Below, piece after piece: positions 10,052 to 38,587 of a DNA stretch of 64,000 bases. The notes below the pieces were generated by a model. The model was not told the origin of the DNA, made no database searches, and saw nothing but the letters and a program-made list of their open reading frames with translations. The position numbers were made by a program, and so were the translations under genes. The DNA comes from an uncultured Methanoregulaceae archaeon (GTDB lineage Archaea; Halobacteriota; Methanomicrobia; Methanomicrobiales; Methanospirillaceae): NCBI GenBank assembly GCA_963701095.1, contig OY969564.1, positions 96,001-160,000 on the forward strand, given 5' to 3'. The first letter of the stretch is position 1; each line of letters opens with the position of its first letter.

Positions 10052-10058
10052 GGTACGC

Positions 10059-11651: not shown

Positions 11652-12103
11652 CCAAGAAGAAACCACCAGCGGCACTCAAGAAACGGGGCCGTAAAAAGAT
11701 CCCGATTGATTACGAAAAAGCGGAGAAATTGGCATCCATAATGTGTACGCAATCAGAAATCGCATCCGTTCTCGGTGTTTCCCTTTCGCAATTGGCTCAC
11801 GATCCCGAATTTTTGCATATCCATAAAAAAGGCATGGAACACGGTAAGGCATCACTGCGCCGTATGCAATATGCCGCTGCGAGTGGTGGAAACCCCACCA
11901 TGCAGATCTGGCTTGGAAAACAGTATCTTGAGCAACGGGATAAGATGGACGTCGAAAACACCATAACAACCGAAGAAGTCCTCGTCCGTGAGCGAGCACT
12001 GATTGAGATAGTCAAGGAGGCTATCCGTGCAGAAGCAGACCCCGAAACTACGCGGAAAATCGTCGCACACATCAAAACCCGCTGCAATCCCGTCAATACG
12101 TGA
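11648..12103 (+). CDS. terS: Terminase small subunit
   Basis: CTQSEIASVLGVS, KASLRRMQ, NPTMQIWLGKQYLEQRD; directly upstream of terL. Confidence 0.8.
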   Translation: MTKKKPPAALKKRGRKKIPIDYEKAEKLASIMCTQSEIASVLGVSLSQLAHDPEFLHIHKKGMEHGKASLRRMQYAAASGGNPTMQIWLGKQYLEQRDKMDVENTITTEEVLVRERALIEIVKEAIRAEADPETTRKIVAHIKTRCNPVNT

Positions 12104-16887: not shown

Positions 16888-19152
16888 TTAGGTTAGTTTT
16901 TTTAGTGCGATTTCCCGATTCTGTTTCGCGATGGCATAATCTGGTTTAATGGCTAGGGCTTTGTCAAAAGATGCAATTGCATCATTAAGTCTACCAAGAC
17001 CACTGAGCGCGACTCCGCGGGTATCCCACACCAAGGCATAATTTGGGTTAAGATTGATTGCGTTGTCACATGAGGTAAGGGCTTCTGTATACCGACCGAG
17101 ATTATTCAGAGCATCCCCTCGGTTGTTCCACGCATCTGGGCTTTTTGGGTAGATTGCAATCGCTTTGTCATAAGAGGCGAGTGCTTCCGAATACCGACCG
17201 AGCATCCCTAGCAAGACTCCACGATTGTACCACACCAGAACATAATTTGGATAGATATCAATTGCCTTGTCATATGAGTCAAGTGCTTCCCTATTTCGGC
17301 CGAGCTTACGTAGTATAATCCCGCGATTGCCCCACGCTTCTGCGATATTAGGGTTGATGGCAATTGCCTTGTCATATGAGTCAAGTGCTTCTGTATGCCG
17401 ACCGAGATTTTTCAGAATATCTCCGCGATTGCCCCACGCTTCTGCGATATTGGGGTTGATGGCAATTGCCTTGTCATATGAGTCAAGTGCTTCTGTATGC
17501 CGACCGAGAATCCCTGACAAGACTCCATGGTTGTAACACGCATCAATGTCTTTGGGGTTTATCGCAAGGATTTTATCATAACATTCTATTGCTTTCTGGA
17601 AGTCCTTCAGATCAGAAAACATTTTTCCCTTGTTTCTCCATACAAGAGCCTCCCTTGGATTTATTTCGAGAGATTTATCATAACATTCTATTCCTTTCTG
17701 AAATTCTCCAAGATTATCTAAAGATTTACCTTTGGCTCCCCATGCTCTATCGTTTCTCGGGTCTATCTCAAGGGCTTTATCAAAACATTTAATTGCTTCC
17801 AGATTTTTCTTCAAAAAGGAAAGAATACCGCCTTTATTAATCCATGAATCAGCCATTCTTGGATCTAACTCAAGCGCTTTATCATAACATTCAAGTGCTT
17901 CATGGACGTTTCCCAGACAACGAAGAGCATATCCTTTATTACTCCAACCAAGAGGATCTTTTGGATTTATTTCAAGAGCTTTGTTGTAGCATTTAATTGC
18001 TTCTGGGTATTTCTTGAGATTATCAAGATTTATGCCCATTTCATACCATATACCGGCCACATTTGGATTTATGTCGAGAGCTTTTTCACAACATTCAATT
18101 GCCTCTTGATATTTTCCTAGATTACTAAATGCGACCGCTTTACTTAGCCAATTAGATCCTGTTAAACTCTGGTCTTCTTCAAAAACAACGTATTTTTCTT
18201 TAAAAAGGATATTATAGAGTGATATTAACTCATTTTTCAAGTCATTAAAATCTGAATATCTATTATCTGGATTTCTCTCAATACATTTCATAATCAATGT
18301 ATCCAGTTGTTCCGGTATCTCAGGATTCAAACTCTTAGGTCGTTCCGGTGTTTTTTCAAAGATCTCATTTAGATCATGGAAGGGTAGTTTTCCTGTTAGC
18401 AACACATAAAGTGTCAATCCAAAAGAATAGATGTCAGATCTCGTTGTCACTGGTCCCTTAAAAGAAAATTTATCTTGAATGTTCCTAGGGAACTGTTCCG
18501 GTGGCATAAATATAGGTGTTCCAATGCCATTTGAGACGTTTATGGAATCCCCCAGCATTTGATCACCCAATACTTTTACCAATCCAAAATCTGTGATTTT
18601 AAAAGAATACCTGGATATAAATCTTGGATCTTGTCGCAGCAATACATTGGTGGGTTTAATATCGCGGTGAATTATCCCATATTTGTGATAGACGTAATCC
18701 ATCCCTGTACAAAATTGAATGGCAAAGTCCATAGCGTTCTTAATATCAATTTTACCAATAAATCGGTCTAGATCTCCTCCGGGGACATATTCTAAAAACA
18801 GTAAAGGTTTACCTTCGACTATTCGAATTGTATTTGCAAAAACAATGTTTGCATGGTGCTCAATTGCAATCCAGACCTCTGCTTCCGCCATGAATCTTTG
18901 GATTGCATTATTATCCCAGAGAAATTTATCCTGAAAAGTTTTAATAGCAATAAGTCCATTCGATTGTAGCTCACGAGCGATATAAACAACACCCATGCCG
19001 CCTTTTTTTATATCAACAATTTCGTAGAGATTCGAAATTTTATAACCTTTCTCCCAAGGTTTCACGGTGGGATGTAAAATATACGTGTTGGGGTTATTGT
19101 TTAAATCAGAGTCATTCTCTGGATTTATTCTAAAATTATAAAGAAATCCCAT
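16888..19152 (-). CDS. Hanks-type Ser/Thr protein kinase with C-terminal TPR array
   Basis: GGMGVVY, AIK, HRDIKPTN, DFG, GTPIFMPPE, SDIYSFG; about 12 TPR units. Confidence 0.95.
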   Translation of the reverse strand: MGFLYNFRINPENDSDLNNNPNTYILHPTVKPWEKGYKISNLYEIVDIKKGGMGVVYIARELQSNGLIAIKTFQDKFLWDNNAIQRFMAEAEVWIAIEHHANIVFANTIRIVEGKPLLFLEYVPGGDLDRFIGKIDIKNAMDFAIQFCTGMDYVYHKYGIIHRDIKPTNVLLRQDPRFISRYSFKITDFGLVKVLGDQMLGDSINVSNGIGTPIFMPPEQFPRNIQDKFSFKGPVTTRSDIYSFGLTLYVLLTGKLPFHDLNEIFEKTPERPKSLNPEIPEQLDTLIMKCIERNPDNRYSDFNDLKNELISLYNILFKEKYVVFEEDQSLTGSNWLSKAVAFSNLGKYQEAIECCEKALDINPNVAGIWYEMGINLDNLKKYPEAIKCYNKALEINPKDPLGWSNKGYALRCLGNVHEALECYDKALELDPRMADSWINKGGILSFLKKNLEAIKCFDKALEIDPRNDRAWGAKGKSLDNLGEFQKGIECYDKSLEINPREALVWRNKGKMFSDLKDFQKAIECYDKILAINPKDIDACYNHGVLSGILGRHTEALDSYDKAIAINPNIAEAWGNRGDILKNLGRHTEALDSYDKAIAINPNIAEAWGNRGIILRKLGRNREALDSYDKAIDIYPNYVLVWYNRGVLLGMLGRYSEALASYDKAIAIYPKSPDAWNNRGDALNNLGRYTEALTSCDNAINLNPNYALVWDTRGVALSGLGRLNDAIASFDKALAIKPDYAIAKQNREIALKKLT

Positions 19153-19338
19153 TATATACTCAAATTTTCATTCTATTTTTTACCTTTATAAGGTTTTTCG
19201 ACTTTTAACATTTTGTACGAAACCTCAACTAATTTTCACCTTAAAAGTGAAGATAAAATGAAAGGTTAGGCAAAATGAATTTATTGTTGTTCACCTGGCT
19301 AAATTTAAAATATTAGTTTAATGGATCCCTTTGCCGTA

Positions 19339-20163
19339 TTAATTTCCAACCATAATAGTTCCATTTTGTTGTTTCACCATCTTTGCCATTTCTGGGTTTA
19401 AACGATATAATTGATTATAAGCATCAAGAAATTCTTTATCGCGGTTTAAATTTTTGAGAGCTGATGCTTTGTTATACCACGCGAAGGTGTCATTTGGATT
19501 TAATTGAATGGCTCTGTCGCATGCAATGAGAGATTCATCATAACGCTTCAGAAAAACAAGGATGCCGCCCCTGTTATGCCATGCAGATGCATCATTTGGA
19601 TTTAATTGAATGGCTCTGTCGCATGCAATGAGAGCTTCTTCCTGACGCTTCAGAAGAAAAAGGACACCGCCTTTCTTCCACCATGAGGTTGCATTATTTG
19701 GAGTGAATTGTAGAGCTTGGTCATGCGCATTCAAAGCTTCTTCAAATTGTTTAAGTACATGACTAAAGATGGCTGCCTTCTCTTGCCACGCAATCAATGC
19801 ATGATCATTATCGGGATTTAATTGAAGGACTCGATTATATGAGTCTAGAGCTTCTTCATGCCGGTTCAAATTATTGAGGATATACCCTCTCATGCACCAT
19901 GAGTCCGTATCATTTGGGTTTAGGTTAAGGGCGTGGTCATATGCCACCAGGCTCCCTTCGTAGCGTTTTAAATCAATAAGCATTCGTCCTTTAAATTTCC
20001 ATAAATCTGATGATTCTGGCTTTAATTGAATCGCCACATCACAAGCAGTAAAGGCATCTAAAAATAATCCCATATTATAGTTTTTAAAGGCAGCATCCAT
20101 CCATTGATTGGCATTTTTTCCCTCAATTGTTTTCTCGGTTGAAGAAAAAACCATTATTATCAA
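19339..20163 (-). CDS. TPR repeat protein
   Basis: Repeated 'W..KG..L..LKRYEEAL..YD.A..LNP'. Confidence 0.9.
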   Translation of the reverse strand: MIIMVFSSTEKTIEGKNANQWMDAAFKNYNMGLFLDAFTACDVAIQLKPESSDLWKFKGRMLIDLKRYEGSLVAYDHALNLNPNDTDSWCMRGYILNNLNRHEEALDSYNRVLQLNPDNDHALIAWQEKAAIFSHVLKQFEEALNAHDQALQFTPNNATSWWKKGGVLFLLKRQEEALIACDRAIQLNPNDASAWHNRGGILVFLKRYDESLIACDRAIQLNPNDTFAWYNKASALKNLNRDKEFLDAYNQLYRLNPEMAKMVKQQNGTIMVGN

Positions 20164-20463
20164 TCCTATTGTAAATTTGTAACATCTTAATACTTTATTT
20201 AAAAAAACCTAAACAAGGGTGTTCTTTTCTATCCAACATCATCTTATATTCCGTGCAGTACTGCCACTGGATCGCGCTTCAAGGCATTAAGTAAAATCAA
20301 ATCGGGGTACAATTTATCTTATGATTTTTGTCAGAGTTTTTCTGGAAAACAAATTGCCACATGGAATTTTAATTAATATCTATCTTGCGGACTTTGTGTG
20401 GCACATACCTTTTATTATTTAATTCTCAATATACCATATAATTATTAAAAGATGGTGACGTAA

Positions 20464-20889
20464 ATGGGCGTTGTAGTTGAAATTCTAAAGAAAGTAAGAG
20501 ATCCGCTTAATCTCTTATACATGGCAATGCCACGAGTTTCGATGAAACCAATTGGTGGTGGACGTGCAACGTCTACAGAATATGTACCGGATCAACTTGT
20601 ATTTGATGTTCATATATGGAATGACCGAGTGCAACTTTTCAAGGTCGGTGGCGGGATAAATCTCCAGTCATCAAATCTTGCAGTACGAATGATGGTAGAA
20701 CAATTATATCCAATGTATGTCAATATCAGAGAAGTTTGTGATATTGGAGATATAGATGAAATAGAAAAACGTGGGCGGGAATTATCAGATACCGATGATC
20801 CAACCCCATATACAACCGCATTTAACGAGTTTGTAAAATTAAAAGAACGTAGAATCAAAGATTTCGAAGCAGGTGATATACAAGGATAA
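20464..20889 (+). CDS. Hypothetical protein
   Basis: 141-aa ORF preceded by GGTGA RBS. Confidence 0.55.
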   Translation: MGVVVEILKKVRDPLNLLYMAMPRVSMKPIGGGRATSTEYVPDQLVFDVHIWNDRVQLFKVGGGINLQSSNLAVRMMVEQLYPMYVNIREVCDIGDIDEIEKRGRELSDTDDPTPYTTAFNEFVKLKERRIKDFEAGDIQG

Positions 20890-21190
20890 CAAACCCAAAT
20901 CCGATAATACCATTTAATTTTGCACTTGCTATCCCCAGTGATGTGATACGGAATTGAATATTTTTTGAGAACCGGGTATTTTCGTTGTGCTATGCGCCAT
21001 AAGCTATGGCGGATATTCTGCCGTCCCTTATGTCCTCGTTCCCATGAGTTTTATATATAGCATAAGATGTACTGACAATTATCCAGTTGACTTTGGACTA
21101 TCTGGCAGCAACATCTTACAATCCGGGCAATCAGTTCCCATACTAAAAGAACAAATAAAGATTAAGTTGATGAAATAGTGGGGAAATAAT

Positions 21191-21240
21191 ATGATAACGC
21201 ACTGTTATAGGTGTGGACACTATACTTTATTGAATTCATG
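21191..21240 (+). pseudogene. 5' fragment of a Zn-finger/TPR gene interrupted by the transposon
   Basis: MITHCYRCGHYTLLNS-C joins in frame to PIYPGLTKG at 25761 when the element and one TSD are removed. Confidence 0.8.
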
Positions 21241-21372
21241 GGCTTTGCACGTAAACTCGCTTCTGCACGTAAAGTATGAGACTTGCACGTAAAGTGGCGT
21301 ATAGGTAATTTTTAATAAATTTGAACCGATCAATTTGAAAATACTAATAGGAATGAATGGAGAACAACTAGT

Positions 21373-21738
21373 ATGAGCAAAAGGAAAAAGAACGCTATCA
21401 ACGATGATGGAACTGGCGAGTTCCCCTCAAGTGGCGGAGGAATAAGATTGTTTGGGGCGACATCAAGGCATGACTATGAGTTTTTAATAATGGATGGTAT
21501 TAAAAAAGGATTTACTACCACGCCAGAACTTCACAAATTTATAGAGGCTGGATTTAAAGACAAATTTAACGAGATAGATACATCATTTGTTACAATTTAC
21601 TCTACTCGTTGGCAAAAAAACGTTGATTGGAAAAAATATCTTATGAAAAACGATGGTTTAATTGAACAAGATGGGAAACAACTTTCGTTGACTGCTGAGG
21701 GAGTTGCCCGTTATTTACATTTGAGAAAGAATAGATAA
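21373..21738 (+). CDS. Mrr_N-like winged-helix protein (transposon cargo)
   Basis: RWQKNVDW..YLMKNDGLIE....LSLTAEG. Confidence 0.55.
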   Translation: MSKRKKNAINDDGTGEFPSSGGGIRLFGATSRHDYEFLIMDGIKKGFTTTPELHKFIEAGFKDKFNEIDTSFVTIYSTRWQKNVDWKKYLMKNDGLIEQDGKQLSLTAEGVARYLHLRKNR

Positions 21739-21748
21739 TGTAATTTCT

Positions 21749-22705
21749 TTAAAGGCTGCTCAACCAATTGCAGAGAGAGGCGAGTTGATCGGCATCGGTC
21801 ATATTTGCAGCATTTTTCAATGTTTCATTTTGAATCCGTTCCCATATTTCATCTGCCATACGTTGAGATATTGCAGCGGCGATAAAACATATTTCCGGGA
21901 ACGAATCCTCACGAGAAAATTTAGAGCGAATGTCACTCAATGCAGATCGCGTTGTTTTCCAACGTTCATCTGCACCTGCTGGATCGATACCGCCTTTCAA
22001 TTCACCTAATGCAAGAAACAGGGCAGGTGCTTTTTTTGCCCGAGGCAATTCTTCCCGTGAACATTTTATTAAATTAATATCAACATTTTTACCAACTAAC
22101 GGGATTCTAACGTCATAAATCAATGTTCTGTTTTGCCCGTTTTTCATCCAATTCAATCCCTTTACAAGAGGAGTAATATTCGCATCGTTGACATTGGTAT
22201 TTGGGGCGCGCGCCCACTTATCTGTATCACGATTGCACCAATAAAACGGAACACCCGCATTCCTTAAAGACGCTATAACTGCACTGGATACACGTTGTCG
22301 TGCCCAATATCCGACGATGTTGTTCATTGAACCCGCCAAGCTTCCGCCACTAATTAACAAAAAGCGAAATACCAACTCTTCAACAAAATTATTACCGGCC
22401 GGTTCAAGATATTCTCTGATCAATCCTTCGATAGCGGCTGTTTTTGCTTCTTCGGGAATGTTTCCCATGCTTTTATCAGATATTCCAGAAGCGGTGATCA
22501 ATGCGCTCCGTATCCCTCCAATCCCAATCAATTCTTGAGCAGTTCGGACTGTTGATGCTGTAGATTTCAACTGTCGTGCCTCTTCTATATATGGAGAGGC
22601 AATACGACTTTTTTCAAGCGCTTGAGCTACAAACGCAGCCCTGATTTCTTCACGGGTGGTTATAAGACTGGCCGCATTCGGCAAATGAGGTAGATTTGGT
22701 GGCAT
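21749..22705 (-). CDS. AvaI/BsoBI-family type II restriction endonuclease
   Basis: KNVD, LALGELKGGIDPAGADE.WKT, FVEELVFRFLL. Confidence 0.88.
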   Translation of the reverse strand: MPPNLPHLPNAASLITTREEIRAAFVAQALEKSRIASPYIEEARQLKSTASTVRTAQELIGIGGIRSALITASGISDKSMGNIPEEAKTAAIEGLIREYLEPAGNNFVEELVFRFLLISGGSLAGSMNNIVGYWARQRVSSAVIASLRNAGVPFYWCNRDTDKWARAPNTNVNDANITPLVKGLNWMKNGQNRTLIYDVRIPLVGKNVDINLIKCSREELPRAKKAPALFLALGELKGGIDPAGADERWKTTRSALSDIRSKFSREDSFPEICFIAAAISQRMADEIWERIQNETLKNAANMTDADQLASLCNWLSSL

Positions 22706-22746
22706 GATTAAATCTTATTTATGCCACAGTAAAATAAAAAATCATC

Positions 22747-24156
22747 TTATACTTTTTTCCAGCAATAGACACATTTTCTCAATGATGTTCGTCCGTGGGT
22801 TCCCATTTGCTGACTACTATTCCCTTTCCCCGTAGGAAGAACCAATATTTTTTCCACTTTAAACCCAAGATTCTCTGCAATACTCGACAAGATGGTATCA
22901 ACGGAAATATTGACCCCGGCATATCTCACATTGTCGTTTACCATGAACATGTATCCATCAGGTTTTAAAACACGGTGGCACTCTTTGATCACACATGCCA
23001 TCTCATAGAAATATCCACGAACCATACGAGGAATACCGGTGTTATTTAATTTATCCTGCTTTTTCAAATCTTCCAAATATCTCAATATCTCTTGCAAAAC
23101 CTCTTGGTCGTCGGTTATTTTTATGGCGTCTTTCCAGTCAGAATTCATTAAAATGAGATCCTTTGCACGATTCTCAACCGTGCAACTAATCATTTTCTGT
23201 CTCAAATCCCGCAATTTGTATTCATCGGTTCCAAGTAACGCCAGTTCTAGCGCGTATGTTCTCGTATAATCATACCGATTACAGTACGGCGGAGAGGTGA
23301 TAATAGTCTTATATGTGTCATCTTTTAACGTTTGCAAAATTTCAAGACACGATCCCTCATGAAGTATGATATCTCCATTCAGTATTGGCGATGATAGTTC
23401 TATACTAGGTGCAGTGTCAGTAATTATTTCGTTGAGTTTTTCGGTGATGGCACCACCGAATTCCAATATCGTTCCTTTATCAAACACGTTAGAATTTAGT
23501 TGCCCTCTGCCTGATCTTTGATCCCATCGAAGATATTGCCCATCTTTCCGAGTGTAACTGATTGATTCCAGAATACAAAGAAGTGCAAATTTTAAAACAA
23601 ACTGCACTCTTTTATTTTCTTTTGATAGCACATGCAGATAATTTTCTATCGCCAATTGTGTTTCTGGGGGGTACGCATTGTTTGTTATTTTTAATGCAAT
23701 GAATGGAGTTCTTTCCTGTGTTTTTATCCACGGCTTATTTTTTATCCACCGAAGAATTGTTTCACGATCTTTTTTCGTGAACTTTTGTTCCAAGCAGATT
23801 TTAGTCGTTATTATCTGATGTCCAATAGGAAGGAGTTCGATCCCATCCGCATCTAACCCCAATGCACTTGCGGTAAATAATGCAGTCCCACTCCCAGCAA
23901 ACGGATCTAACAATCTCCCCGACCGGATTCTATATTTCTTAAGGAGGTATTCTACGAGAGAGGCCGAAAACGCTTCCTTAAATTTATACCATCTGTAAAC
24001 AGGGCGCTTTTTATTATCTTGGAAACTTACGATCTGACGAGTTAGTTTTTTATCAATTATGATATTGTGTTGAAAATGATTTTCCAATAAGTGATCCATG
24101 TCGTCAATACGAGATATTGATTCTTTTTCTGAAAGAATTCCCATAAGTTCTACCAT
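22747..24156 (-). CDS. N4-cytosine DNA methyltransferase (M.BsoBI/M.AvaI-like)
   Basis: RWYKFKEAFS, DPFAGSGT, SYTRKDGQYLRWD, TSPPYCNRYDY. Confidence 0.9.
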   Translation of the reverse strand: MVELMGILSEKESISRIDDMDHLLENHFQHNIIIDKKLTRQIVSFQDNKKRPVYRWYKFKEAFSASLVEYLLKKYRIRSGRLLDPFAGSGTALFTASALGLDADGIELLPIGHQIITTKICLEQKFTKKDRETILRWIKNKPWIKTQERTPFIALKITNNAYPPETQLAIENYLHVLSKENKRVQFVLKFALLCILESISYTRKDGQYLRWDQRSGRGQLNSNVFDKGTILEFGGAITEKLNEIITDTAPSIELSSPILNGDIILHEGSCLEILQTLKDDTYKTIITSPPYCNRYDYTRTYALELALLGTDEYKLRDLRQKMISCTVENRAKDLILMNSDWKDAIKITDDQEVLQEILRYLEDLKKQDKLNNTGIPRMVRGYFYEMACVIKECHRVLKPDGYMFMVNDNVRYAGVNISVDTILSSIAENLGFKVEKILVLPTGKGNSSQQMGTHGRTSLRKCVYCWKKV

Positions 24157-24184
24157 GATTACAACGGCTCTATTAATACGCCTT

Positions 24185-24346
24185 TCATTTTCTTATTCGT
24201 TCCCGATCCCAATACGGGGACTTACATTTCGGATTCGGGCATACCTTCGGGAGTTTGTCCGGGTCTTTGGGATACCATTCGTGCCCACATCTAAGGCACG
24301 TCAATTTCTGATTAATCTCTTTACCGCAATGAGGACATCTCGCCAT
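24185..24346 (-). CDS. 53-aa zinc-finger microprotein divergent from the transposase (not in the ORF track)
   Basis: MARCPHCGKEINQKLTCLRCGHEWYPKDPDKLPKVCPNPKCKSPYWDRERIRK; AGAGGTG RBS. Confidence 0.8.
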   Translation of the reverse strand: MARCPHCGKEINQKLTCLRCGHEWYPKDPDKLPKVCPNPKCKSPYWDRERIRK

Positions 24347-24399
24347 AAAGTAACACCTCTACTGATTGATATAACTTAATCATCCAAAGTATATATTCC

Positions 24400-24450
24400 T
24401 GCCGGTATGTATCCCCTTCGGTATGTATACCGTTAGGTATATATCCCTTA
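24400..24450. promoter_or_regulatory. Three GGTATRTAT repeats (~16-bp period) between the divergent Zn-finger and transposase genes
   Basis: CGGTATGTATCCC / CGGTATGTATACC / AGGTATATATCCC. Confidence 0.45.
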
Positions 24451-24475
24451 AGGGACATAGTATAGGTAGTGAATT

Positions 24476-25717
24476 GTGATGACACAAACCCACGAACCCC
24501 TAACCACCAGCCGCGAAAAGAGGGGGCGAGCAATCGCAGAAAAGAGCGGTCAGATCCAGAAAGTCAAAGATAACCAGTACAAGGTAAGGTCACAGTCCGG
24601 CAACGGTTCCTATGAAATCAAAATCGGCAAGAATGGGGCCGAATGCAGTTGCCCGGATTTCCAGACCCGGCACCTGCCCTGCAAGCATATTCTCGGACTT
24701 CGCTATTACCTAGAAGTGCAGAAGGACACCCCCGAAGGCACTGTAACCGAAAAGGTACGTCTGACTTATTCCCAAGCGTGGAGCGCGTACAATGCTGCAC
24801 AGATCGAAGAAATCAAAATCTTCGATGCTCTGTTGAAGGATTTAGTAAAAGCAATCCCTGAGCCGGAACAGAAGATGGGGCGCCCACGCATACCGATGAG
24901 TGAAAACCTGTTCTGTGCTATTCAGAAGGTTTACTCTCAGTTATCCAGCCGTCGCGCTCACAGCCTCTTCCAGAATGCGGTAGAAAAGAAGCAGATCGAT
25001 CACGCGCCTTACTTCAATGCACCATCGGCCCTGTTCAACAAGCCCGAAATAACACCTATCCTTCAGGAGTTAGTCACGCTATCAGCGTTACCCGTTGCTG
25101 AGCTTGAAACAGACTTTGCGATTGACTCCACGGGATTCCGGACTACAACCTTTAGCGAATACTGTGGAATGAAACACGGGCAGAAGAAGGCTCACCGATG
25201 GATCAAGGCACACATGGCAACCGGCATTAAGACCAACATCGTTACCTGCATCGAAGTCACCGCTGGGAACGCCCACGATTCCACGCAATTCAAGCCCCTC
25301 GTTAAAGACATCTCAATGAATTTTAATATCCATGAAATTTCCGCCGACAAAGCTTACTCATCCCGTGACAATTACGAGGCCGTGAACGCAGTCGGTGGAA
25401 CTGCGTATATTCCGTTCAAGAGCCACGCAACTGGTAAGACTCGTGGTTCCCCCATCTGGAAAAAGATGTACCACTATTTCCAACTGAACAAGGATGAGTT
25501 CATGGAGCACTATCACAAGCGAAGTAACACTGAGTCAACCAACGCGGCCATCAAAAGGAAATTTGGGGAGACACTGAAATCGAAAAACCAGACCGCTCAG
25601 ATCAATGAACTTCTAGCAAAGATTATCGCCTACAATCTGACGGTAGTAATTCATGAGATGTATGAGAATGGGATCTCGCCAGACTTCCTGCACGTAAAGT
25701 CCGGAGCCTGCACGTAA
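24476..25717 (+). CDS. DDE transposase (IS4/IS5-like) with N-terminal SWIM zinc finger
   Basis: CSCPDF...CKH SWIM; AIDSTGF, WIKAH, ADKAYSS, YHKRSNTES...IKRKFG. Confidence 0.92.
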   Translation: MMTQTHEPLTTSREKRGRAIAEKSGQIQKVKDNQYKVRSQSGNGSYEIKIGKNGAECSCPDFQTRHLPCKHILGLRYYLEVQKDTPEGTVTEKVRLTYSQAWSAYNAAQIEEIKIFDALLKDLVKAIPEPEQKMGRPRIPMSENLFCAIQKVYSQLSSRRAHSLFQNAVEKKQIDHAPYFNAPSALFNKPEITPILQELVTLSALPVAELETDFAIDSTGFRTTTFSEYCGMKHGQKKAHRWIKAHMATGIKTNIVTCIEVTAGNAHDSTQFKPLVKDISMNFNIHEISADKAYSSRDNYEAVNAVGGTAYIPFKSHATGKTRGSPIWKKMYHYFQLNKDEFMEHYHKRSNTESTNAAIKRKFGETLKSKNQTAQINELLAKIIAYNLTVVIHEMYENGISPDFLHVKSGACT

Positions 25718-26550
25718 TGTCGGGTCAAATCCCTACTTTACGTGCAAAGCCGAATTCATGCCCCATTTATCCAGGTCTGACAAAAGGCTCTTTTGAAATT
25801 ACGGGTGAAAAACAATTATGTAAATCTTGCATGAGTAAAATTTTTGATGATATCCATGCGAAAGAGGTAGCAGATATTTCAATTTGTATGAAAGAGAAAA
25901 GGTTTGATGATGCTATTAAAATTTTTCAATCTATTTTCAATAACGAATCTGATAAAAACTGGTATAATCTTGGGAATTTGTACTACAATAAATTACAACT
26001 TTCTGACGCATTAGATTGTTATGATAATGCATTGTTCTTGAATACACATTACATAAAAGCATGGTATAGGAAGGGGACAATATTGTATAGCATATCAAAA
26101 CTTCAAGATGTTGAAAAACTCAAAGATTCTGCACAATGCTTTAAGAATATTCTCCTTTTAGATCCGAAAAATAAATATGGGTGGAACAATGCATCTACAT
26201 TTTTTATTGCATTATGCAGCATTTCTATTCATAATCGTTTTTTTCAAGACGGTAGCGATACAACACAAACAAACCAAGAAGTTCAAAAATGGGTTTCATT
26301 AAATCTAAATAATAAATATCCCAAAGATCTCGCAAGCGATCTTAAAAATCACCTTACTGGAAAGGCGGGTCGAGAACTTCTTAATGGACTTATTGATTGG
26401 TGGTTTTTAAATCATAAAAAAATATTGGATGCTCTTGAACCAAAAATTGGAGATATTAATCTTTATCCTGATGAAAGTAATGCCATAGAAAGAGTTTACG
26501 TTACGGCCGAAAACGCGAAGATTCCTGATAATTTCTCTAAAAAAATCTGA
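25717..26550 (+). CDS. TPR protein (3' part of the interrupted gene, with a new start supplied by the transposon end)
   Basis: WYNLGN..., AWYRKG TPR units; CKSC. Confidence 0.75.
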   Translation: MSGQIPTLRAKPNSCPIYPGLTKGSFEITGEKQLCKSCMSKIFDDIHAKEVADISICMKEKRFDDAIKIFQSIFNNESDKNWYNLGNLYYNKLQLSDALDCYDNALFLNTHYIKAWYRKGTILYSISKLQDVEKLKDSAQCFKNILLLDPKNKYGWNNASTFFIALCSISIHNRFFQDGSDTTQTNQEVQKWVSLNLNNKYPKDLASDLKNHLTGKAGRELLNGLIDWWFLNHKKILDALEPKIGDINLYPDESNAIERVYVTAENAKIPDNFSKKI

Positions 26551-26559
26551 AATTCAATA

Positions 26560-26902
26560 TTTTAATGAGGGTAATGAGTTTACCAAAGACGGTCAATATG
26601 CAGATGCTGTTGCATCATATGACAAGGTGCTTGCAATCAATCCGATAATTATAGGGCATGGAGCAAACGACGATAGGCTCTGTGTAATCTCGGTCGATAT
26701 TCAGAAGCGGCTGAATCTGATAAAAAATAGTTTATTATTTTTCATTTCTCATGAAGCTGAATTAGGAATGTTACCTGAAGAGATGGAATTTGGTATAACT
26801 ACAGATCCCTGTGTCAGACCTTTTATCATAGCATTTGCCATTAATCCAAATTCTGCAGGAGCGAAACAGAATCTAGAAATTGCGCTCAAAAAGATAACCT
26901 GA
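26560..26902 (+). pseudogene. Degenerate TPR gene remnant
   Basis: GQYADAVASYDKVLAINP...AFAINPNSAGAKQNLEIALKKIT in shifting frames. Confidence 0.55.
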
Positions 26903-29293: not shown

Positions 29294-30277
29294 ATGCCCG
29301 TTGGTTTATCCGATCTTTATCCCGAATTTACGCAGCTCCTGATCCAGACCCAGTTTTTCCGGATTTACGATATCTATGTACCTGACGATTACGGCCTGTT
29401 TACGCAGGTAGTCCCCTCCACCAAAGAAGCCGAAGTCTACCCGACGATGGGTGCAGTTCCGCAGATGTCGCTTTTTGAAGGGGAACGGAAATTCTCCGGT
29501 ATCGGGAACAAACAGACCTTCATGGTCTTCAACAAGTCCTTCGATACCGGCATCAAGATCCCCCTGACAGTCTTCCAGGACGACCAGTACGGGATCCTGA
29601 CCCAGAAGATCGCCGAGCTTGCCATGGAAGGAAAACGGTTGCCCGTTTCCCTCGTGTACAGTGTCCTCCACAACGGAGCCCAGACCAGCGGGTCCAACTA
29701 TCAGGCCGGTTTTGACGGTCTCCCGCTCTATTCCCAGGACCACCAGGGTGTCGGTTCGGCATTCCAGAGCAATATGCTTGGCGGCACGAACACGCTCAAC
29801 GCTACAAACCTTCAGGAAGTCATCGCAAACATGCGGACCCTGACCGACCAGACCGGCAGGCCGCTGGGGATTATCCCGGACACGCTCATCGTTCCACCAA
29901 TGCTTGAGATTCCCGCCAAGCAGCTACTCCACTCGGCATTCTTCATGTCGGTTGGCACCGCTTCATCGCAGAACACCACCGCGTCAACCCCCGCTGGCGT
30001 CTACAATATCCCAACCAGCAACGAGTTCGGCGGTATCCTGAAGAAAATCATTGTCAACGAATACCTCACGAGCCCGTCCGAATGGCATGTTGCCTGTACC
30101 GGAAGGATGACCAAACCGGTTTTGCTCCAAGAGCGACAGGCACCAATGCTGACGGTCAAGATGGACCCGAACACCAGCGACGACGTGATGAAGGAAAACA
30201 ATGCGTTTGCCTCCATCTATGCACGGTGGGGAGCTGCCCCCGGCAACTGGATGACCGTCTACCAGGGAAGCTCCTGA
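29294..30277 (+). CDS. Major capsid protein, Mu gpT-like (HK97 fold)
   Basis: VPST..E.Y..MGAVPQM, DDQYG, FDGLPLYSQDH, GRPLGIIPDTLIVPP.LE, KPVLLQER. Confidence 0.88.
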   Translation: MPVGLSDLYPEFTQLLIQTQFFRIYDIYVPDDYGLFTQVVPSTKEAEVYPTMGAVPQMSLFEGERKFSGIGNKQTFMVFNKSFDTGIKIPLTVFQDDQYGILTQKIAELAMEGKRLPVSLVYSVLHNGAQTSGSNYQAGFDGLPLYSQDHQGVGSAFQSNMLGGTNTLNATNLQEVIANMRTLTDQTGRPLGIIPDTLIVPPMLEIPAKQLLHSAFFMSVGTASSQNTTASTPAGVYNIPTSNEFGGILKKIIVNEYLTSPSEWHVACTGRMTKPVLLQERQAPMLTVKMDPNTSDDVMKENNAFASIYARWGAAPGNWMTVYQGSS

Positions 30278-30304
30278 TCTCACCTCTCATTTTTCAGGAT
30301 TCCA

Positions 30305-30730
30305 ATGACCGGCTTGATCTGGGCTAACGATATCGCGGCGATGCTTGAAACCGGATGCAGTTACTCCCAGGCGACGGTTGATGCCCTCGGCGCCGTCGTT
30401 GAGCAGTTCATCCAGGCCGAGCTTGACATGAACGGTTTACCGATTAACCCGGCCAACACGGCCGGGAGCGGTGTCGGCATGCTCATGGTCGCATCCCAGA
30501 ACTGGCTCTGCCGGGATATCCGGATCATGCAGAAGCATGACGGCACGATCCCGAACAGTCTCTCTGCCGGCCCGACACGGGAAGACGTTGCGATTGATGT
30601 CAGTATCAAATTTTACGATGATAAGGGACGGGCTGCACTTGACAAGTACATCCTGAGCCAGGCCGGCGACGAAGAGGACGACGAAGCACAGTATGCCGGG
30701 CTGATAGCCCTTGCCGGGGAAGATCTGTGA
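30305..30730 (+). CDS. Head-tail adaptor (putative)
   Basis: Position after the capsid gene; size. Confidence 0.55.
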   Translation: MTGLIWANDIAAMLETGCSYSQATVDALGAVVEQFIQAELDMNGLPINPANTAGSGVGMLMVASQNWLCRDIRIMQKHDGTIPNSLSAGPTREDVAIDVSIKFYDDKGRAALDKYILSQAGDEEDDEAQYAGLIALAGEDL

Positions 30731-31074
30731 CCGCACCAGTATTCCCTTCAATCTTTGTGCACACCTGCACGCTTCAGCATACGATATCTACGGGTAAGGA
30801 TCAGTATGGTGCACCATCGCCCAACAAACAGATCACTGCATCGGTTTGCCGGTTCTTTTCCTGCCAGGTTGCGGGGGAAAATGCGGCTGGTGTGCCGATA
30901 CTGGTTGATCAGCTCCATTGCCTCCTGCCATCTACGGCCGTCGTACAAGATGAGGACACTATCGTCAGTACGGTTCCGGGCTACAATGGCACGTTCCAGA
31001 TCATCAACGCTGAACCTGATACCACCCGGGCCGGCGTCCGGCACTGGACGTGTACGATCAAGAAGGTGGTGTGA
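30727..31074 (+). CDS. Head closure/stopper (putative)
   Basis: HTCT...D.YG.P; position. Confidence 0.6.
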   Translation: MTAPVFPSIFVHTCTLQHTISTGKDQYGAPSPNKQITASVCRFFSCQVAGENAAGVPILVDQLHCLLPSTAVVQDEDTIVSTVPGYNGTFQIINAEPDTTRAGVRHWTCTIKKVV

Positions 31075-31077
31075 GCC

Positions 31078-31332
31078 ATGGACGCGACAAAACCCCAAAC
31101 GGATCGTGAATGGCTGGTCCAGATTGACGGTAAGGTGGACTCCATCCTCGCCCGCCTTGAGAAAGGTGATACCTGCATGGAAGATTATGGCGACCGGCTT
31201 GATGTCCTTGAAAAATTCCAGGCTAAACTTGTCGGTATTGCCGTAAGTCTCTCCCTGATCGCTTCGGTCTGCGGGTACTGGATTCTCTGCAAGCTCTCCG
31301 AACTGGGAATCGGTAACGGAGGAGGTCACTGA
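31078..31332 (+). CDS. Small coiled-coil plus transmembrane protein (holin/XhlA-like)
   Basis: RLDVLEKFQAKLVGIAVSLSLIASV. Confidence 0.55.
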   Translation: MDATKPQTDREWLVQIDGKVDSILARLEKGDTCMEDYGDRLDVLEKFQAKLVGIAVSLSLIASVCGYWILCKLSELGIGNGGGH

Positions 31333-31366
31333 CATAACCGCCGAACTCGAAGGGCTGGAAGAGTGC

Positions 31367-31729
31367 ATGGCTGGTTTACAGGATGCCCTTGATCAGGTTC
31401 ATGCAAGTTCCGGAAACGCTGCCATGCAGGGTGGTCTTGCGTATGTTGCCGATGTGAAAGCCCTCGCACCAGTCAAGAACGGTGAGTACCGGGACGGGAT
31501 CTCCTGCAAACCTTCTCCGGATGGTGATGGTTCCGTTATCGTCGGGTCTCCCGATCCTTTCTCCCGGCGGCTTGAGTACGGGTTCTACGATATGACCGAT
31601 TCTCTCGGCCGGCACTTTTTCCAAGAGCCCCGCCCGCATTTCCGACCGCCACTCGACACCGAGATGGACAGATATCTGGCGATCATGGCCGGCACTATTG
31701 CAAAAGAAGCTTTCGGGGATGATGGGTGA
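31367..31729 (+). CDS. HK97 gp10-like tail completion protein (true start may be ~11 codons upstream)
   Basis: LAPVKNG.YR.GI, LEYG, PRPHFRPP. Confidence 0.75.
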   Translation: MAGLQDALDQVHASSGNAAMQGGLAYVADVKALAPVKNGEYRDGISCKPSPDGDGSVIVGSPDPFSRRLEYGFYDMTDSLGRHFFQEPRPHFRPPLDTEMDRYLAIMAGTIAKEAFGDDG

Positions 31730-32130
31730 TGCAGGATATTGTTCTTGCCGTCATCGACCAGCTGCTTGCCAATGCTTCCGTTGCCGGGCAGGTTGGGACG
31801 AACATCTACCGGGGCAACCTGCCACCATCACCTCCGTATCCTTCAGTCGTAGTAGACCGCGTCACAAAACTCCGGGAGGCCGGGAACAACACCGCCCACT
31901 ATGCAACCGCCCGGGTACAATGCACCGTCTTTACGCAATCCGATGGTCTCGCGGAAACTATCAGCGAGGCAATAGCGGACTGCCTGCACAGCACGACGAA
32001 CACCTTCATGAATAACGTGTACGTGATCCGCATCGAAGACGCGGGAGGTGCCCCGGATAACTCCGATGCACTTACCGTCGGTATCTTCCGGGATCACCGC
32101 GATTTCCTGATTTTCTATTCAGCACATTGA
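31726..32130 (+). CDS. Tail terminator (DUF3168-like)
   Basis: VGTNIY...P.YP.VV, RVQCTVF. Confidence 0.7.
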   Translation: MMQDIVLAVIDQLLANASVAGQVGTNIYRGNLPPSPPYPSVVVDRVTKLREAGNNTAHYATARVQCTVFTQSDGLAETISEAIADCLHSTTNTFMNNVYVIRIEDAGGAPDNSDALTVGIFRDHRDFLIFYSAH

Positions 32131-32143
32131 GGTACCACAAACC

Positions 32144-32878
32144 ATGACTTCACAAGCCAAGATGGCGACCGGGATGTTTCTCGCATTCAACGGTTACGTT
32201 CTTGCCGAGATGACAGATATTTCCGAACCCCCGCTCGCCGTTGAGAAAGTTGATTCTACGAGCCATGACAGCCCGTGTAAGATCACCATCCCCGGCCAGC
32301 TCTCGTACGGTGACATGACCTACACGGTGAACTTCGTAAACGATGTAACGCAGGCCGCACTTGAGACCATGGCCACCGCACGGACTACCGGCATGTGGCA
32401 GGTTATTTTCCCGCCGGCATTTGCGTCCCTATCGTACCAGGTGCCCGGGTTCGTCAGTGGCATAAAGAAGAAAACCCCGCTGAAAAGCAATCCTGCTTCA
32501 CGAGACTTCACCGTCACACCGACCGGAGGCATCACGCCAATCACTACGGCAGGACCGAACCTGACTGCGCCGTACATGATCGTGGAGGACCAGGTGCCGA
32601 ACATCTTTACGCTTTCACCGGCGTTGTCCGGTACGACCTATCAGTATACCTGCACGTCCAAACAGGCCAGCACTGCGATTACTGTCACACCGACGGCCGC
32701 AAGTGGCACGATCTACGTTGCCGGAAACCAGACGGCGACCGGTGTTGCAAGCACTGCGATCCCCTATACCCTTGCACAATATCCGACCGGTTCCATCCTG
32801 ACGGTCTTCGTGCTTGTGACCGGGACCAATGTCACGCCGTCCGTGTATGAAATCCAGATCACCCGGGGTACCTCATAA
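32144..32878 (+). CDS. Major tail tube protein with C-terminal cadherin-like beta-sandwich
   Basis: VDSTSHDS, IPG...G; LSPALSGTTYQY...ITVTPTA...YEIQITR. Confidence 0.8.
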   Translation: MTSQAKMATGMFLAFNGYVLAEMTDISEPPLAVEKVDSTSHDSPCKITIPGQLSYGDMTYTVNFVNDVTQAALETMATARTTGMWQVIFPPAFASLSYQVPGFVSGIKKKTPLKSNPASRDFTVTPTGGITPITTAGPNLTAPYMIVEDQVPNIFTLSPALSGTTYQYTCTSKQASTAITVTPTAASGTIYVAGNQTATGVASTAIPYTLAQYPTGSILTVFVLVTGTNVTPSVYEIQITRGTS

Positions 32879-33312
32879 TGCTGAATAGTGTCCCTATCGA
32901 AATCGGCGGAGAAAAGTATCTCCTCCAGTTTTCGGCCATCGATGTAGACGAGATGGAGGCCATCTTCGATAAACCACTGGTGAGTATACTCAACGAGAAC
33001 CAGATCAAACGAATTGGCGTGCTTGGGACGATGCTGTATGCAGGTCTCAAGAAGAACGGTCTGCCGGGTCCGCATGGAGAACTCCCCCGGGTATTCCCGC
33101 GAGGTGCAGCCGGACGGGCAGAGGCCCTTGATCTCGTACGAACCCATACCACCGGAAAAACCGGGGCGGTCATGATCGAGCTCGGTAACAAGATCTTCGA
33201 AGGATTCGGTGCCGGGGAGTGGTTCACGTTCAAGGCGGTGCTCGAAAAGGAGGCAGTGCCCCAGGAGACCGAGCCCTCAAAAAACTCGGAAGGGACTGGA
33301 TCAAGTCCATAG
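32878..33312 (+). CDS. Tail assembly chaperone (G)
   Basis: Between tail tube and tape measure; slippery site near the 3' end. Confidence 0.75.
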   Translation: MLNSVPIEIGGEKYLLQFSAIDVDEMEAIFDKPLVSILNENQIKRIGVLGTMLYAGLKKNGLPGPHGELPRVFPRGAAGRAEALDLVRTHTTGKTGAVMIELGNKIFEGFGAGEWFTFKAVLEKEAVPQETEPSKNSEGTGSSP

Positions 33313-33668
33313 AACCGGCTGCATACGGGCTATGCGGTCTCTTCCCGGCTGAGCTCTGGAACCTAACGCCCCGTGATCTCCGGGTGATGATTGAGACTAA
33401 ACTCAAAATACGGACGGAACGGCAACGAGCTGACCTGTGGCACTTCGACCGGCTCTTTGCCGTCCAGACTGCAAGGCTGCTCAACATAGCTGGAAAAACG
33501 CTCAAAGAGGGCGTTGAAATCGACGCGGATTCCCTCTACGTGTTTAAGTGGGATATGCCAGCAACCGAAGAGCCGGAAGATGAATGCGATCCAGCGTCAC
33601 GGCTGGAAGAAATCAGGCAGAAAATGAACAAGTGGGTCAAGGCAACCGGAGGAACTCCTCGTGGGTGA
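33279..33668 (+). CDS. Tail assembly chaperone GT extension reached by -1 frameshift
   Basis: A AAA AAC at 33279-85; -1 frame reads GLFPAELWNLTPRDL. Confidence 0.75.
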   Translation, partial: KKLGRDWIKSIEPAAYGLCGLFPAELWNLTPRDLRVMIETKLKIRTERQRADLWHFDRLFAVQTARLLNIAGKTLKEGVEIDADSLYVFKWDMPATEEPEDECDPASRLEEIRQKMNKWVKATGGTPRG

Positions 33669-35373
33669 ACAAGTAGTTGGATCCTTGTGGGTCAAACTGG
33701 GTCTTGATGGATCCGGCCTGTCCGGTGGTGTTGCCAACGCAGCGGCATCATTCGATGTCATTACAATGGCAGCGAGGACTGCGACGAGGTTTGCCCAGCA
33801 GGGATTCGATGATACCGTCGGTGCGGCGATCTCGTATGCCGACCAGATGCAGCACGTTTCTGACGTAACCGGTATGAGCACCGACTCGGCACAGAAATGG
33901 AATGCTGCAAACATTGCTGTTGGTGGATCCCTGGACTCAATGCTTTCATCGCTCCAGATGGTGCAGGGAAAGATCGCTGACACCACAACCACCGGCAACA
34001 CCTACCGGAAGACCCTCGATAATCTTCACATCGCTTACAAAGACCAGAACGGGGATTACCTCGACGCCGACACCCTCCAGAAAAATATCCTTACGAGTTT
34101 AAGCAAGGTAACTGACGCCACTCAAAGGGACTCCGATGCCCGCCTTATCTACGGCCGGGGATGGGCGAGCAATGCAGAGCTTATCACCAATGCAACAAAG
34201 GCCCTCCAGGTCTATAACGCGACCCCGTCACCATTCTCTGACGACCAGATCACCGCTGCCCACAACATTGGTATCGAGCTTGACCAGTTCAACGCCAAAC
34301 TCTCCATCGCCCAGACCGAAGTCGGCATGGAACTGTTACCCTCAGTAAAAACGCTGGTTACCACATTTGGCGCTGCATTTAATGAGGACAGCCCGGTCAT
34401 CACCTTTTTCTCATGGCTTAACGGTGCGATAGAAGATTCTGTCGAAGGATTCGCAAAACTTGTCGGTGGTATTGAAGCCGGTACAGAGGCCATCAACGAT
34501 CTGGCAACCGGGAAAGGACTCTCCCAGTCTATGGCGGATTTCCAGTCCCAGGAAAATAAGACCAACGCCTATATCACCAACCTCCGGGGCCAGGCCGATA
34601 TCACTCAGGGAGAGATGGCCAATCCATCACCATCTTCACCAGTTGCCGGAAGTTCATCGCCAGATACGAGTGGAGACTCCGGAGGAAGTTCAGGCACTAA
34701 ATCAGGCAAAACGTCCACCGCTAAAACAGCAAGCACCACTACAAAAGCTGGCAGTGGATGGCACGGTGCTGCAATCGGAGATCCCGGTACGGCGATGAAC
34801 CAGTACATGATGGATTCATATGCCGATGGGATGTCATATTCCGAAGCCCTGAACGCATGGTCCGGGAACGCCCAGCCCACAGCATCCACCATGAAGCTGG
34901 CTCAGCAGTTCCAGGGAGATCAGACAAACCAGGGAATGAATGCAACGGTTGCATCGCTCGTTTCATCCACCGGGATCTCAACAGCAACCGCAATGCAGGC
35001 ATGGCAGCAAGGTGATGTCCTTCACGGAGACGCTGCCGCAACTTCAGATCCATCAAAGACCGCAGCTGCTTCAACTACGCTCGCAAAAGCCACCAGTACT
35101 GACCCGGTACTTACCGCTATTCAAAAGTGGTATAACGACTGGACGCCCCTGAACCAACTCGAGCAGTCCTCGTGGAAAACGACGACTGAAACCTATCAGA
35201 CAACCGTACTCAGCAACTGGACCACCTTGCTCGGTAATATGACGACTGTCTTAGCGACACTCAGCACAATTGCCGCGAAGACCGGCACAACTCCCGCCGG
35301 TTCGAGTGCAAACGCGGGTTCCACCACATTAGCAACTGCAGGACAGAGCACCTCCATTGGAGGGCTCTACTGA
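33661..35373 (+). CDS. Tape measure protein
   Basis: VGSLWVKLGLD N-terminus; Ala/Thr/Ser-rich; position. Confidence 0.85.
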   Translation: MGEQVVGSLWVKLGLDGSGLSGGVANAAASFDVITMAARTATRFAQQGFDDTVGAAISYADQMQHVSDVTGMSTDSAQKWNAANIAVGGSLDSMLSSLQMVQGKIADTTTTGNTYRKTLDNLHIAYKDQNGDYLDADTLQKNILTSLSKVTDATQRDSDARLIYGRGWASNAELITNATKALQVYNATPSPFSDDQITAAHNIGIELDQFNAKLSIAQTEVGMELLPSVKTLVTTFGAAFNEDSPVITFFSWLNGAIEDSVEGFAKLVGGIEAGTEAINDLATGKGLSQSMADFQSQENKTNAYITNLRGQADITQGEMANPSPSSPVAGSSSPDTSGDSGGSSGTKSGKTSTAKTASTTTKAGSGWHGAAIGDPGTAMNQYMMDSYADGMSYSEALNAWSGNAQPTASTMKLAQQFQGDQTNQGMNATVASLVSSTGISTATAMQAWQQGDVLHGDAAATSDPSKTAAASTTLAKATSTDPVLTAIQKWYNDWTPLNQLEQSSWKTTTETYQTTVLSNWTTLLGNMTTVLATLSTIAAKTGTTPAGSSANAGSTTLATAGQSTSIGGLY

Positions 35374-36254: not shown

Positions 36255-36255
36255 A

Positions 36256-38580: not shown

Positions 38581-38587
38581 GGACTCT

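Follow-up and report, generated by a model that had tools for sequence, protein, structure and literature searches.

What kind of element places a restriction-modification (R-M) operon inside an archaeal provirus is the question raised by positions 21,191 to 26,550 of the window, the 64,000-nucleotide stretch of contig OY969564.1 (uncultured Methanoregulaceae archaeon, assembly GCA_963701095.1) that was analysed here. Judged by sequence comparisons, the region from 21241 to 25751 (4,511 bp) is very probably an autonomous DNA transposon of the "insertion sequence (IS) with passenger genes" kind, built from a backbone of about 1.4 kb and exchangeable cargo. The backbone consists of a left end of 55 bp, the gene for the transposase, and a right end of 63 bp that shares 29 bases with the 3' end of that gene. 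The cargo slot extends from the left end to the transposase start codon, and here it holds an R-M operon with a methylase of the m4C/m6A class and a BsoBI-type endonuclease. The features that define the backbone and its limits are as follows.

21232..21240, no strand: left copy of the target-site duplication, GAATTCATG (flanking-repeat comparison)
21241..21295, plus strand: left end, with the inverted repeat 21241-21255 and two subterminal TGCACGTAA cores, all direct (element positions 6, 24 and 44)
24476-25717, plus strand: transposase, 413 aa, with a SWIM finger and an IS5-type DDE domain (PF04434, PF01609)
25689..25751, plus strand: right end, with the inverted repeat 25737-25751 and, unlike the left end, two outward-pointing subterminal cores (25689, 25709)
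25752..25760, no strand: right copy of the target-site duplication (flanking repeat; contigs of sequencing runs X1 and X2 diverge at 25752)

Boundaries and copy number

The terminal inverted repeats (21241-21255 and 25737-25751, GGCTTTGCACGTAAA) are complementary at 15 of 15 positions and are bracketed by a perfectly matching 9-bp direct repeat, GAATTCATG, at 21232-21240 and 25752-25760. An earlier note on this DNA had placed the limits at 21232..25760, with 15-bp inverted repeats, a 9-bp duplication and a single SWIM-bearing transposase; the limits and repeats are recovered exactly, and only one transposase gene is present in the element. The passenger genes and this lone transposase lie inside one IS-type repeat pair with a target duplication, the arrangement of a transporter IS. 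A composite (compound) transposon was considered and is ruled out by the single transposase gene and the conserved left end of just 55 bp, which leave no pair of complete IS to bracket the cargo. Within the host's own genome (2.63 Mb, one contig), the transposase and each of the two ends occur as a single copy.

The transposase and its relation to IS903

The SWIM finger (PF04434) was identified at residues 48-75 with 32.3 bits against a cut-off of 19.6 and shows the CxCxnCxH signature, and the DDE_Tnp_1 domain (PF01609) spans residues 212-388 (E 1.2e-24). Across 30 of 30 aligned relatives there is no variation at the zinc ligands (C57, C59, C69 and H71), at the catalytic residues D217, D291 and E353 or at the accompanying Y346, R349 and K360; the Y-2-R-3-E-6-K motif is present. 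When aligned with the NCBIfam IS5 model NF033579, residues 102-389 correspond to model positions 3-288 of 289, and the N-terminal 100 residues fall outside the model.

The resemblance to IS903 proposed earlier is upheld by 23-26% identity to the IS903/IS903B transposases over residues 84-387 (tblastn against plasmids), by the GGCTTTG ends and by the 9-bp target duplication; GGC... termini with a duplication of this length characterize the IS903 group. An IS903 copy at locus L086 is about 1,057 bp long, with one gene, ends of the form GGCTTTGTTGAATAAATC, a 9-bp duplication and no cargo, in agreement with the remark in the same note that IS903 normally carries none. The window element, at 4,511 bp with four extra genes, is not a compact transposase-only IS of about 1 kb.

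A related SWIM module was observed elsewhere in the host's own genome. The 395-aa protein at locus L002 (1489-2676; G000:C1:1779493-1780680) carries an N-terminal module 38% identical to transposase residues 9-90, joined in this case to a zinc ribbon of the InsA type and a DDE domain of the IS240/IS6 type. Since this IS240/IS6-type protein also has one, the SWIM module appears to be common to unrelated archaeal transposase families.

End architecture

The core TGCACGTAA occurs six times in the window, always within the element ends: at 21246, 21264 and 21284 on the plus strand, at 25689 and 25709 on the plus strand, and at 25738 on the minus strand. The chance expectation in the window is 0.30 occurrences, and none of 100 shuffles gave six. 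This window-wide search confirms that the inner right-end cores (25689 and 25709) are oriented as the left copies, as had been claimed from the letters. The transposase stop codon falls inside the core copy at 25709.

The same layout was sought in all 39 bounded elements of the family (see below) by searching both ends with positions 6-15 of each element's own left terminus, one mismatch being allowed. In the family, the left end has its copies at positions 6, 24 and 44 in direct orientation, and the right end has them at 6 (inverted) and at 34 and 54 (outward-pointing). At least two left copies were found in 31 of 39 elements and at least two right copies in 30 of 39; the core match rate in element interiors was 0.21 per kb. 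About 18 core variants are seen across lineages (for example TGCACGTAA, TGCTAATAAA, TGTTGCATAA and TGTGTATAAA), with the subterminal copies tracking the element's own terminus, and the layout is unchanged with or without cargo between the transposase gene and the right end. The multi-site, asymmetric ends described for the window copy are conserved family-wide. Cores that are conserved in position and co-vary in sequence form the pattern expected of transposase-binding sites co-evolving with the protein. These results suggest that the cores are putative transposase-binding sites, which the SWIM domain may be the part to recognize.

A transposon family with exchangeable cargo

Relatives of the transposase were collected in a scan of one genome per species, and 80 loci encoding them were fetched. 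An element was regarded as bounded when termini [GA]GCTTTG lay within 10 kb of the transposase gene, with at most 7 mismatches in 18 between the ends and at most one mismatch in the 9-bp flanking repeat. In total, 37 of the 80 loci yielded 38 bounded elements, or 39 with the window element. The target duplication is perfect in 38 of these 39 (the window copy among them) and has one mismatch in the other. The bounded elements range from 1,802 to 11,562 bp, and there is no bare IS among them.

Larger searches returned at least 809 proteins at E <=1e-30 (full phmmer against 1.84 billion cluster representatives) and 4,753 clusters at E <=1e-20 (word-indexed search). Where the 120 best clusters show a name, it is simply "transposase" or "IS5 family transposase", and never that of an ISfinder element. 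Hosts of the 80 loci include Methanoregulaceae, Methanothrix, Methanocellaceae and other Methanosarcinales, together with Micrarchaeota, Woesearchaeota, Pacearchaeota, Aenigmatarchaeota, Nanoarchaeota, Altiarchaeota and a few bins labelled bacterial. At five loci (L009, L011, L047, L050 and L065), relatives with 42-79% identity were binned as CSSED10-310, Acidiferrales, Korobacteraceae or Fusobacteriaceae, which could be either mis-binning or genuine transfer to bacteria.

Cargo was typed on 197 non-transposase open reading frames (ORFs) with Pfam at E <=1e-6 and PADLOC at E <=1e-5, giving the following classes.

22 of 39 elements, the window's BsoBI system included: DNA methylase or R-M components (examples: type I-like M+S, type IIG/Eco57I/MmeI-like fusions, MamI, C5 and D12 methylases, GmrSD)
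4 of 39 elements: other defence-type genes (TIR/ThsB, NYN/HEC-09, TOTE primase with HerA and NurA)
3 of 39 elements: non-defence genes (an 8-kb glycosyltransferase and radical-SAM cluster, a membrane protein, a winged-helix protein)
10 of 39 elements: no family match

Methylase-bearing elements often also hold AbiU/AIPR, PDC-M19, Panacea or DUF3800 genes. In a Methanothrix element (L022), a second, IS630-like transposase (HTH_32 and DDE_3; 6837-7972) is nested between the methylase and specificity genes. The survey follows the check laid out in the earlier note, namely to collect homologues, define their ends and tabulate cargo, and the outcome in which homologues never carry variable cargo did not occur. 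The family of defence-cargo transposons envisaged there is supported by the 38 bounded relatives of 1.8-11.6 kb, which mostly carry R-M or other defence genes.

The limits of the cargo slot emerge from alignment with close relatives. When the window element is compared with L006 (transposase up to 94% identical), L007, L008, L010 and L013, only two stretches are shared: element positions 1-55 (85-95% identity), and the segment that begins at the start codon of the transposase gene and ends at the right terminus (76-86% identity). All the DNA between these two is unrelated, and it takes in both the zinc-ribbon gene and the promoter region of the transposase. That the small ORF often preceding the transposase gene is a conserved backbone gene was considered and rejected; the ORF comes in at least three kinds with no relation to one another (zinc ribbon, AbrB/MazE-like and DUF7557) and lies outside the conserved DNA.

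Insertion sites and target choice

Where such elements insert was assessed from the sequence on either side, read away from the duplication. In many flanks RAAANC precedes runs that resemble TTTATATA, the predicted sequence signature of an archaeal B recognition element (BRE) plus a TATA box. Under a loose rule (a run of at least 7 A/T starting 2-11 nt beyond the duplication on either side), the motif is present at 28 of 39 elements (17 left, 18 right and 7 both), compared with 12.8% of controls overall (541,391 positions) and 24.5% of intergenic ones (85,014 positions). Under a strict rule (RAA in the first five bases and a run start at 5-7), it is present at 19 of 39, against 1.2% of intergenic controls. 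The offsets of the A/T runs peak at 5-7 nt. Target re-use is also seen: at L061, two different elements share an identical 9-bp target and the duplication is present three times, and at L017 and L035 the right end of a neighbouring element abuts the duplication. Family insertions thus lie mostly just upstream of a BRE/TATA-like motif, the window copy being an off-type insertion.

Across family insertions, the flanks have T at positions -4 and -3 and A from +10 to +12, which fits the IS903 target motif WTTYA-N9-TRAAW (PMC2577343, Table 1). The promoter adjacency is most likely due to a flank preference of the IS903 type (TTYA-N9-TRAA) with which the archaeal BRE happens to coincide.

One alternative, which we regard as unlikely, is that the transposase, perhaps via its SWIM domain, binds TATA-binding protein (TBP) and transcription factor B (TFB) on the BRE/TATA and integrates at their upstream border. 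Tethering of this sort has an analogy in Ty3, which uses TFIIIB for integration. It would account for the precise phasing (the TATA-like run starts 5-7 nt past the duplication in 28 of 42 scored flanks), for insertion in either orientation (motif on the left in 17, on the right in 18), for the re-use of one 9-bp target in tandem at L061 with the abutting neighbours at L017 and L035, and for a TATA run that lies beyond the 5-nt flank covered by the IS903 motif. However, the flank bases already fit the palindromic IS903 motif, which needs no host factor in bacteria; the fixed spacing between BRE and TATA means that reading a BRE-like flank would give equal phasing; and the motif is absent at 11 of 39 insertions, that of the window included. 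A complex prediction for transposase residues 1-110 with the host's own TBP and TFB core scored 0.01, with the mark at 0.32, and is evidence neither for nor against tethering. Direct readout of a BRE-like flank is favoured over tethering, although the data cannot separate the two.

Survivorship is a less probable explanation still, and we consider it improbable. Insertions would be widespread at first, genic ones would be purged, and the remainder would be intergenic and hence near promoters. The sample does consist of fixed insertions in assembled genomes, and TATA-like runs are commoner at intergenic controls (24.5%) than at all positions (13%). Yet the excess persists against intergenic controls under both the loose rule (28/39 versus 24.5%) and the strict rule (19/39 versus 1.2%), the offsets are sharply peaked, and identical 9-bp targets are re-used at L061. 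A flank preference that coincides with the BRE remains the explanation we prefer.

Mobility in other samples

The stretch is partly present in 20 public sequencing runs from 12 studies, and contigs of four runs were mapped to 20900-26100. In X1 (soil, probably the source sample), the whole of 20900-26100 is covered and a second, different flank is seen beyond 25752. In X2 (freshwater), X6 (lake water) and X9 (permafrost), which come from three other studies, contigs cover 21246-25576, cargo included, at 90-100% identity, with zero depth on 20900-21073 and 25772-26100; depth in the left-terminus bin is only the element's own contribution. Contigs break at 21241 in X6 and X9 and at 25752 in X2. 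Since contigs from other studies hold the element with its cargo and diverge exactly at the termini, the element appears to move as a unit. Nearly identical copies come from soil, freshwater, lake and permafrost metagenomes, a sign that the element is active today.

Two further kinds of contig were observed. In an X6 contig, 25751 is linked to 21240 through eight other letters, giving a 9-bp spacer; this joint of right to left end comes either from two elements lying head to tail in one target or from a circle. Loose contig ends at 21295 (X6) and 24487 match the slot limits from the alignment and mark other cargo on the same backbone.

That the window copy is an immobile relic, or a resident IS that acquired the R-M genes in this genome, the 4.5-kb unit never having moved whole, is very improbable: the single copy in the host's own genome and the lack of a spanning long read with the whole unit at another site speak for it, but the repeats and duplication are perfect, the transposase is intact with all catalytic residues kept, contigs of three other studies hold cargo and transposase (90-100%) and break at 21241 and 25752, and X1 has a second right-hand flank.

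Cargo genes of the window element

The cargo of the window copy comprises a minus-strand operon (zinc-ribbon gene, methylase, endonuclease) and one convergent Mrr_N-like gene.

21373-21738, plus strand: 121-aa Mrr_N-like (winged-helix) ORF (Mrr_N Pfam E 0.098, below threshold)
21749-22705, minus strand: BsoBI-family type II restriction endonuclease, full length (PF09194 E 1.5e-110, model positions 4-313 of 313)
22747-24156, minus strand: type II DNA methyltransferase (N6_N4 class), full length (PDLC03224 MTase_II E 8.7e-163)
24185-24346, minus strand: 53-aa four-cysteine zinc-ribbon ORF, first gene of the methylase-endonuclease operon, candidate regulator
24403..24447, no strand: candidate operator, a 16-bp unit in 2.8 tandem copies, located where the zinc-ribbon and transposase genes diverge

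The endonuclease matches PDB entry 1dc1 (BsoBI) with E 5.6e-86 over residues 6-316 and REase_II with E 4.9e-90. For the methylase, positions 32-480 of 481 of the PADLOC MTase_II model are aligned and PF01555 is matched with E 9.2e-13; the SPPY motif is present, and motif I precedes motif IV. With a full-length endonuclease gene adjoining a full-length methylase gene, the pair amounts by sequence to a complete type II R-M system, whose activity and specificity are putative.

Homologues of the zinc-ribbon protein (38-69% identity) hold the equivalent position in L051, L059, L060 and L065. The gene precedes a methylase gene in four of the five elements that have it, the window counted, and a nuclease gene in one. 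The 16-bp repeats at 24403-24447 may serve as an operator. The nearest Atlas clusters to the 121-aa ORF are stand-alone Mrr_N proteins (score 0.91, TM 0.69-0.74), and the Mrr_N label for 21373-21738 is best treated as a lead and not as a firm assignment. Of the passengers listed in the earlier note, the zinc microprotein, methylase and endonuclease therefore stand, and the Mrr_N-like label holds only weakly.

The interrupted gene and its provirus setting

The element lies within a gene whose two parts flank it.

21191..21240, plus strand: 5' part of the split target gene, encoding a zinc-ribbon N-terminus; the final 9 bases are the left duplication copy
25761..26550, plus strand: 3' part of the interrupted zinc-ribbon/TPR gene (TPR_1 E 1.3e-10)

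After removal of the element and one duplication copy, the ORFs at 21191 and 25761 share one frame. As they join in frame, the element has split a once-continuous gene. A homologue in a same-genus genome (L088 1444-2214, 35% identical) has an uninterrupted zinc-ribbon and TPR N-terminus; an exact empty site was not found in 150 genomes of the same family, where this 35%-identical, paralogue-level homologue was the only counterpart. At 25717-25760, a frame whose ATG overlaps the stop codon of the transposase gene extends across the right inverted repeat and on into the interrupted TPR gene, and a truncated target protein could therefore still arise by transposase read-through.

The insertion lies within a block of 36-40% GC (16888-26900), and the flanking virus DNA has 50-56% GC. 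Upstream virus genes (9957-13649) include a ParB-like gene and genes for the small terminase (11648-12100) and the large terminase (12027-13649). Downstream (29294-39850) are genes for a Mu gpT-like major capsid protein (29294-30274), connector, tail completion protein and major tail protein, and further on, up to 39850, for a chaperone, tape measure, Dit and minor tail proteins. With terminase genes upstream and capsid and tail genes downstream, the nesting inside a provirus recognized earlier is borne out, and by its predicted packaging and structural genes on both sides the host site is a tailed-virus-like provirus.

Other genes were noted around the insertion. The low-GC block amid the virus morphogenesis genes also holds, at 16888-20163 and on the opposite strand, a 753-aa Ser/Thr kinase-TPR fusion and a second TPR protein; the transposon's target gene encodes a third TPR protein. 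A DUF3800 gene lies in a low-GC stretch past the tail genes (42047-42703), and DUF3800 is also cargo in the L040 element. Type I-C CRISPR-Cas genes lie at 43585-48361, about 3 kb past the last virus tail gene, with cas5d, csd1/cas8c and an HD-helicase cas3 apparently in two ORFs.

Proposed mechanism and its weight

A working model of the element can be drawn from these observations. Each end presents three 9-10-bp cores, one terminal and two subterminal about 20 bp apart, all direct at the left and with the inner pair flipped at the right. The SWIM domain would read the repeated core, and the differing layouts could distinguish left from right. Transposition may then proceed by IS903-like cut and paste with a 9-bp stagger. 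The R-M or defence cargo may aid persistence of the element through host protection or post-segregational killing.

A broader proposal is put forward tentatively, and we lean slightly against it. The SWIM-IS903-like family, pan-archaeal from methanogens to DPANN, may consist of dedicated defence-gene shuttles that home to the upstream edge of the BRE/TATA. The SWIM domain and the three-site ends would assemble the transpososome, and the promoter complex or a DNA signature would provide a re-used safe landing pad.

Several findings weigh against the interpretation offered here. The transposase scores 136.6 bits with NF033579, just under the cut-off of 140. No bounded element was obtained at 43 of the 80 loci, many of them cut by contig ends, and the statement that cargo is always present rests on 39 elements. 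Fewer than two sites at an end were found in 8 to 9 of 39 elements under the one-mismatch rule, and AT-rich DPANN cores may match by chance in the end search. The BRE/TATA counts come from relatives that are not independent, so that the binomial P values exaggerate significance and are only indicative, and the window's own insertion site, in a low-GC coding region, has no BRE/TATA match. Copies in other samples were pieced together from overlapping short Logan contigs, with no single spanning record. Lastly, the BsoBI stretch GADEHWK reads GADERWK in the window endonuclease (His to Arg); a catalytic role has been proposed for that histidine, and endonuclease activity is hence not assured.

If the broader proposal is correct, it would mean promoter-targeted DNA transposition in archaea. 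The element itself provides a concrete vehicle by which R-M and other defence genes move among archaea, small-genome DPANN included, and it is small enough to ride within a provirus. The BRE/TATA phasing suggests how such a transposon avoids host killing, and could offer a promoter-proximal insertion tool in archaea. The family also provides a natural series for study, with a constant backbone, cargo swapped between sharp junctions and sites that co-vary with the transposase.

Comparison with known systems

BsoBI recognizes CYCGRG. The window endonuclease aligns with BsoBI end to end, retains the VD and ELK motifs and has an adjacent methylase gene; it differs by the one His to Arg change, by the zinc-ribbon gene that heads its operon and by being transposon-borne in an archaeal provirus.

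The concept of the transporter IS (tIS), an IS-like element with passenger genes, reportedly goes back to Siguier, Gagnevin and Chandler in 2009. The tIS described so far are sporadic members of families that are mainly bacterial, IS1595 and IS66 among them. Like these, the window element has one transposase, IS-type repeats, a duplication and passengers unrelated to transposition inside the repeats. In contrast, all 39 bounded members of the SWIM family carry cargo, mostly for defence, and the hosts are archaeal.

The ends of Tn7- and Mu-type elements hold several transposase-binding sites whose arrangement differs between left and right, and Tn7-like elements carry variable defence cargo and have a preferred attachment context. 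The Tn7-type duplication is 5 bp. The SWIM family differs in having a single IS5-type DDE protein, a 9-bp duplication and far smaller elements, and no TnsA/B/C/D-type families were found in a Pfam scan of the window element's five genes.

Furuta et al. (2010, PMC2853133) described transposon-like R-M units within inverted repeats and 8-bp duplications in Xanthomonas oryzae and in Neisseria gonorrhoeae, and no archaeal R-M system passed the selection of that study. Those units resemble the window element in having type II/IIG R-M genes within inverted repeats, a short duplication and a demonstrable empty site, but they are bacterial and were chosen for the absence of linked mobility genes, whereas the window unit encodes a transposase and belongs to a large family. 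Thaumarchaeal IS-like elements with one or two genes have also been described (PMC6563490), with SWIM unmentioned in the available parts of that paper. In a literature text search, which did not include supplements, ISfinder or TnCentral, no paper was found on SWIM-containing, IS903-like archaeal cargo transposons, their ends or promoter-targeted archaeal transposition. The IS5-family IS903-like transposase class, the idea of an IS that carries passengers, and the occurrence of R-M genes within transposon-like units are already known; the SWIM-bearing archaeal transposon family is apparently undescribed.

IS903 itself is the closest point of comparison in the transposase. Both have a DDE_Tnp_1 transposase with Y-2-R-3-E-6-K (23-26% identical over about 300 residues), termini that start GGCTTTG (in DPANN members GGCTTTGTTTAATAAGT, near the GGCTTTGTTGAATAAATC of IS903) and a 9-bp duplication, and the family's flank preference of TT..N9..AAA is matched by WTTYA-N9-TRAAW in IS903. 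Whereas IS903 is about 1,057 bp long, with one gene and single 18-bp repeats, the SWIM family adds a 100-residue N-terminal SWIM domain and two subterminal sites per end in an asymmetric layout, carries 0.5-10 kb of cargo, and has insertions that adjoin archaeal promoter motifs.

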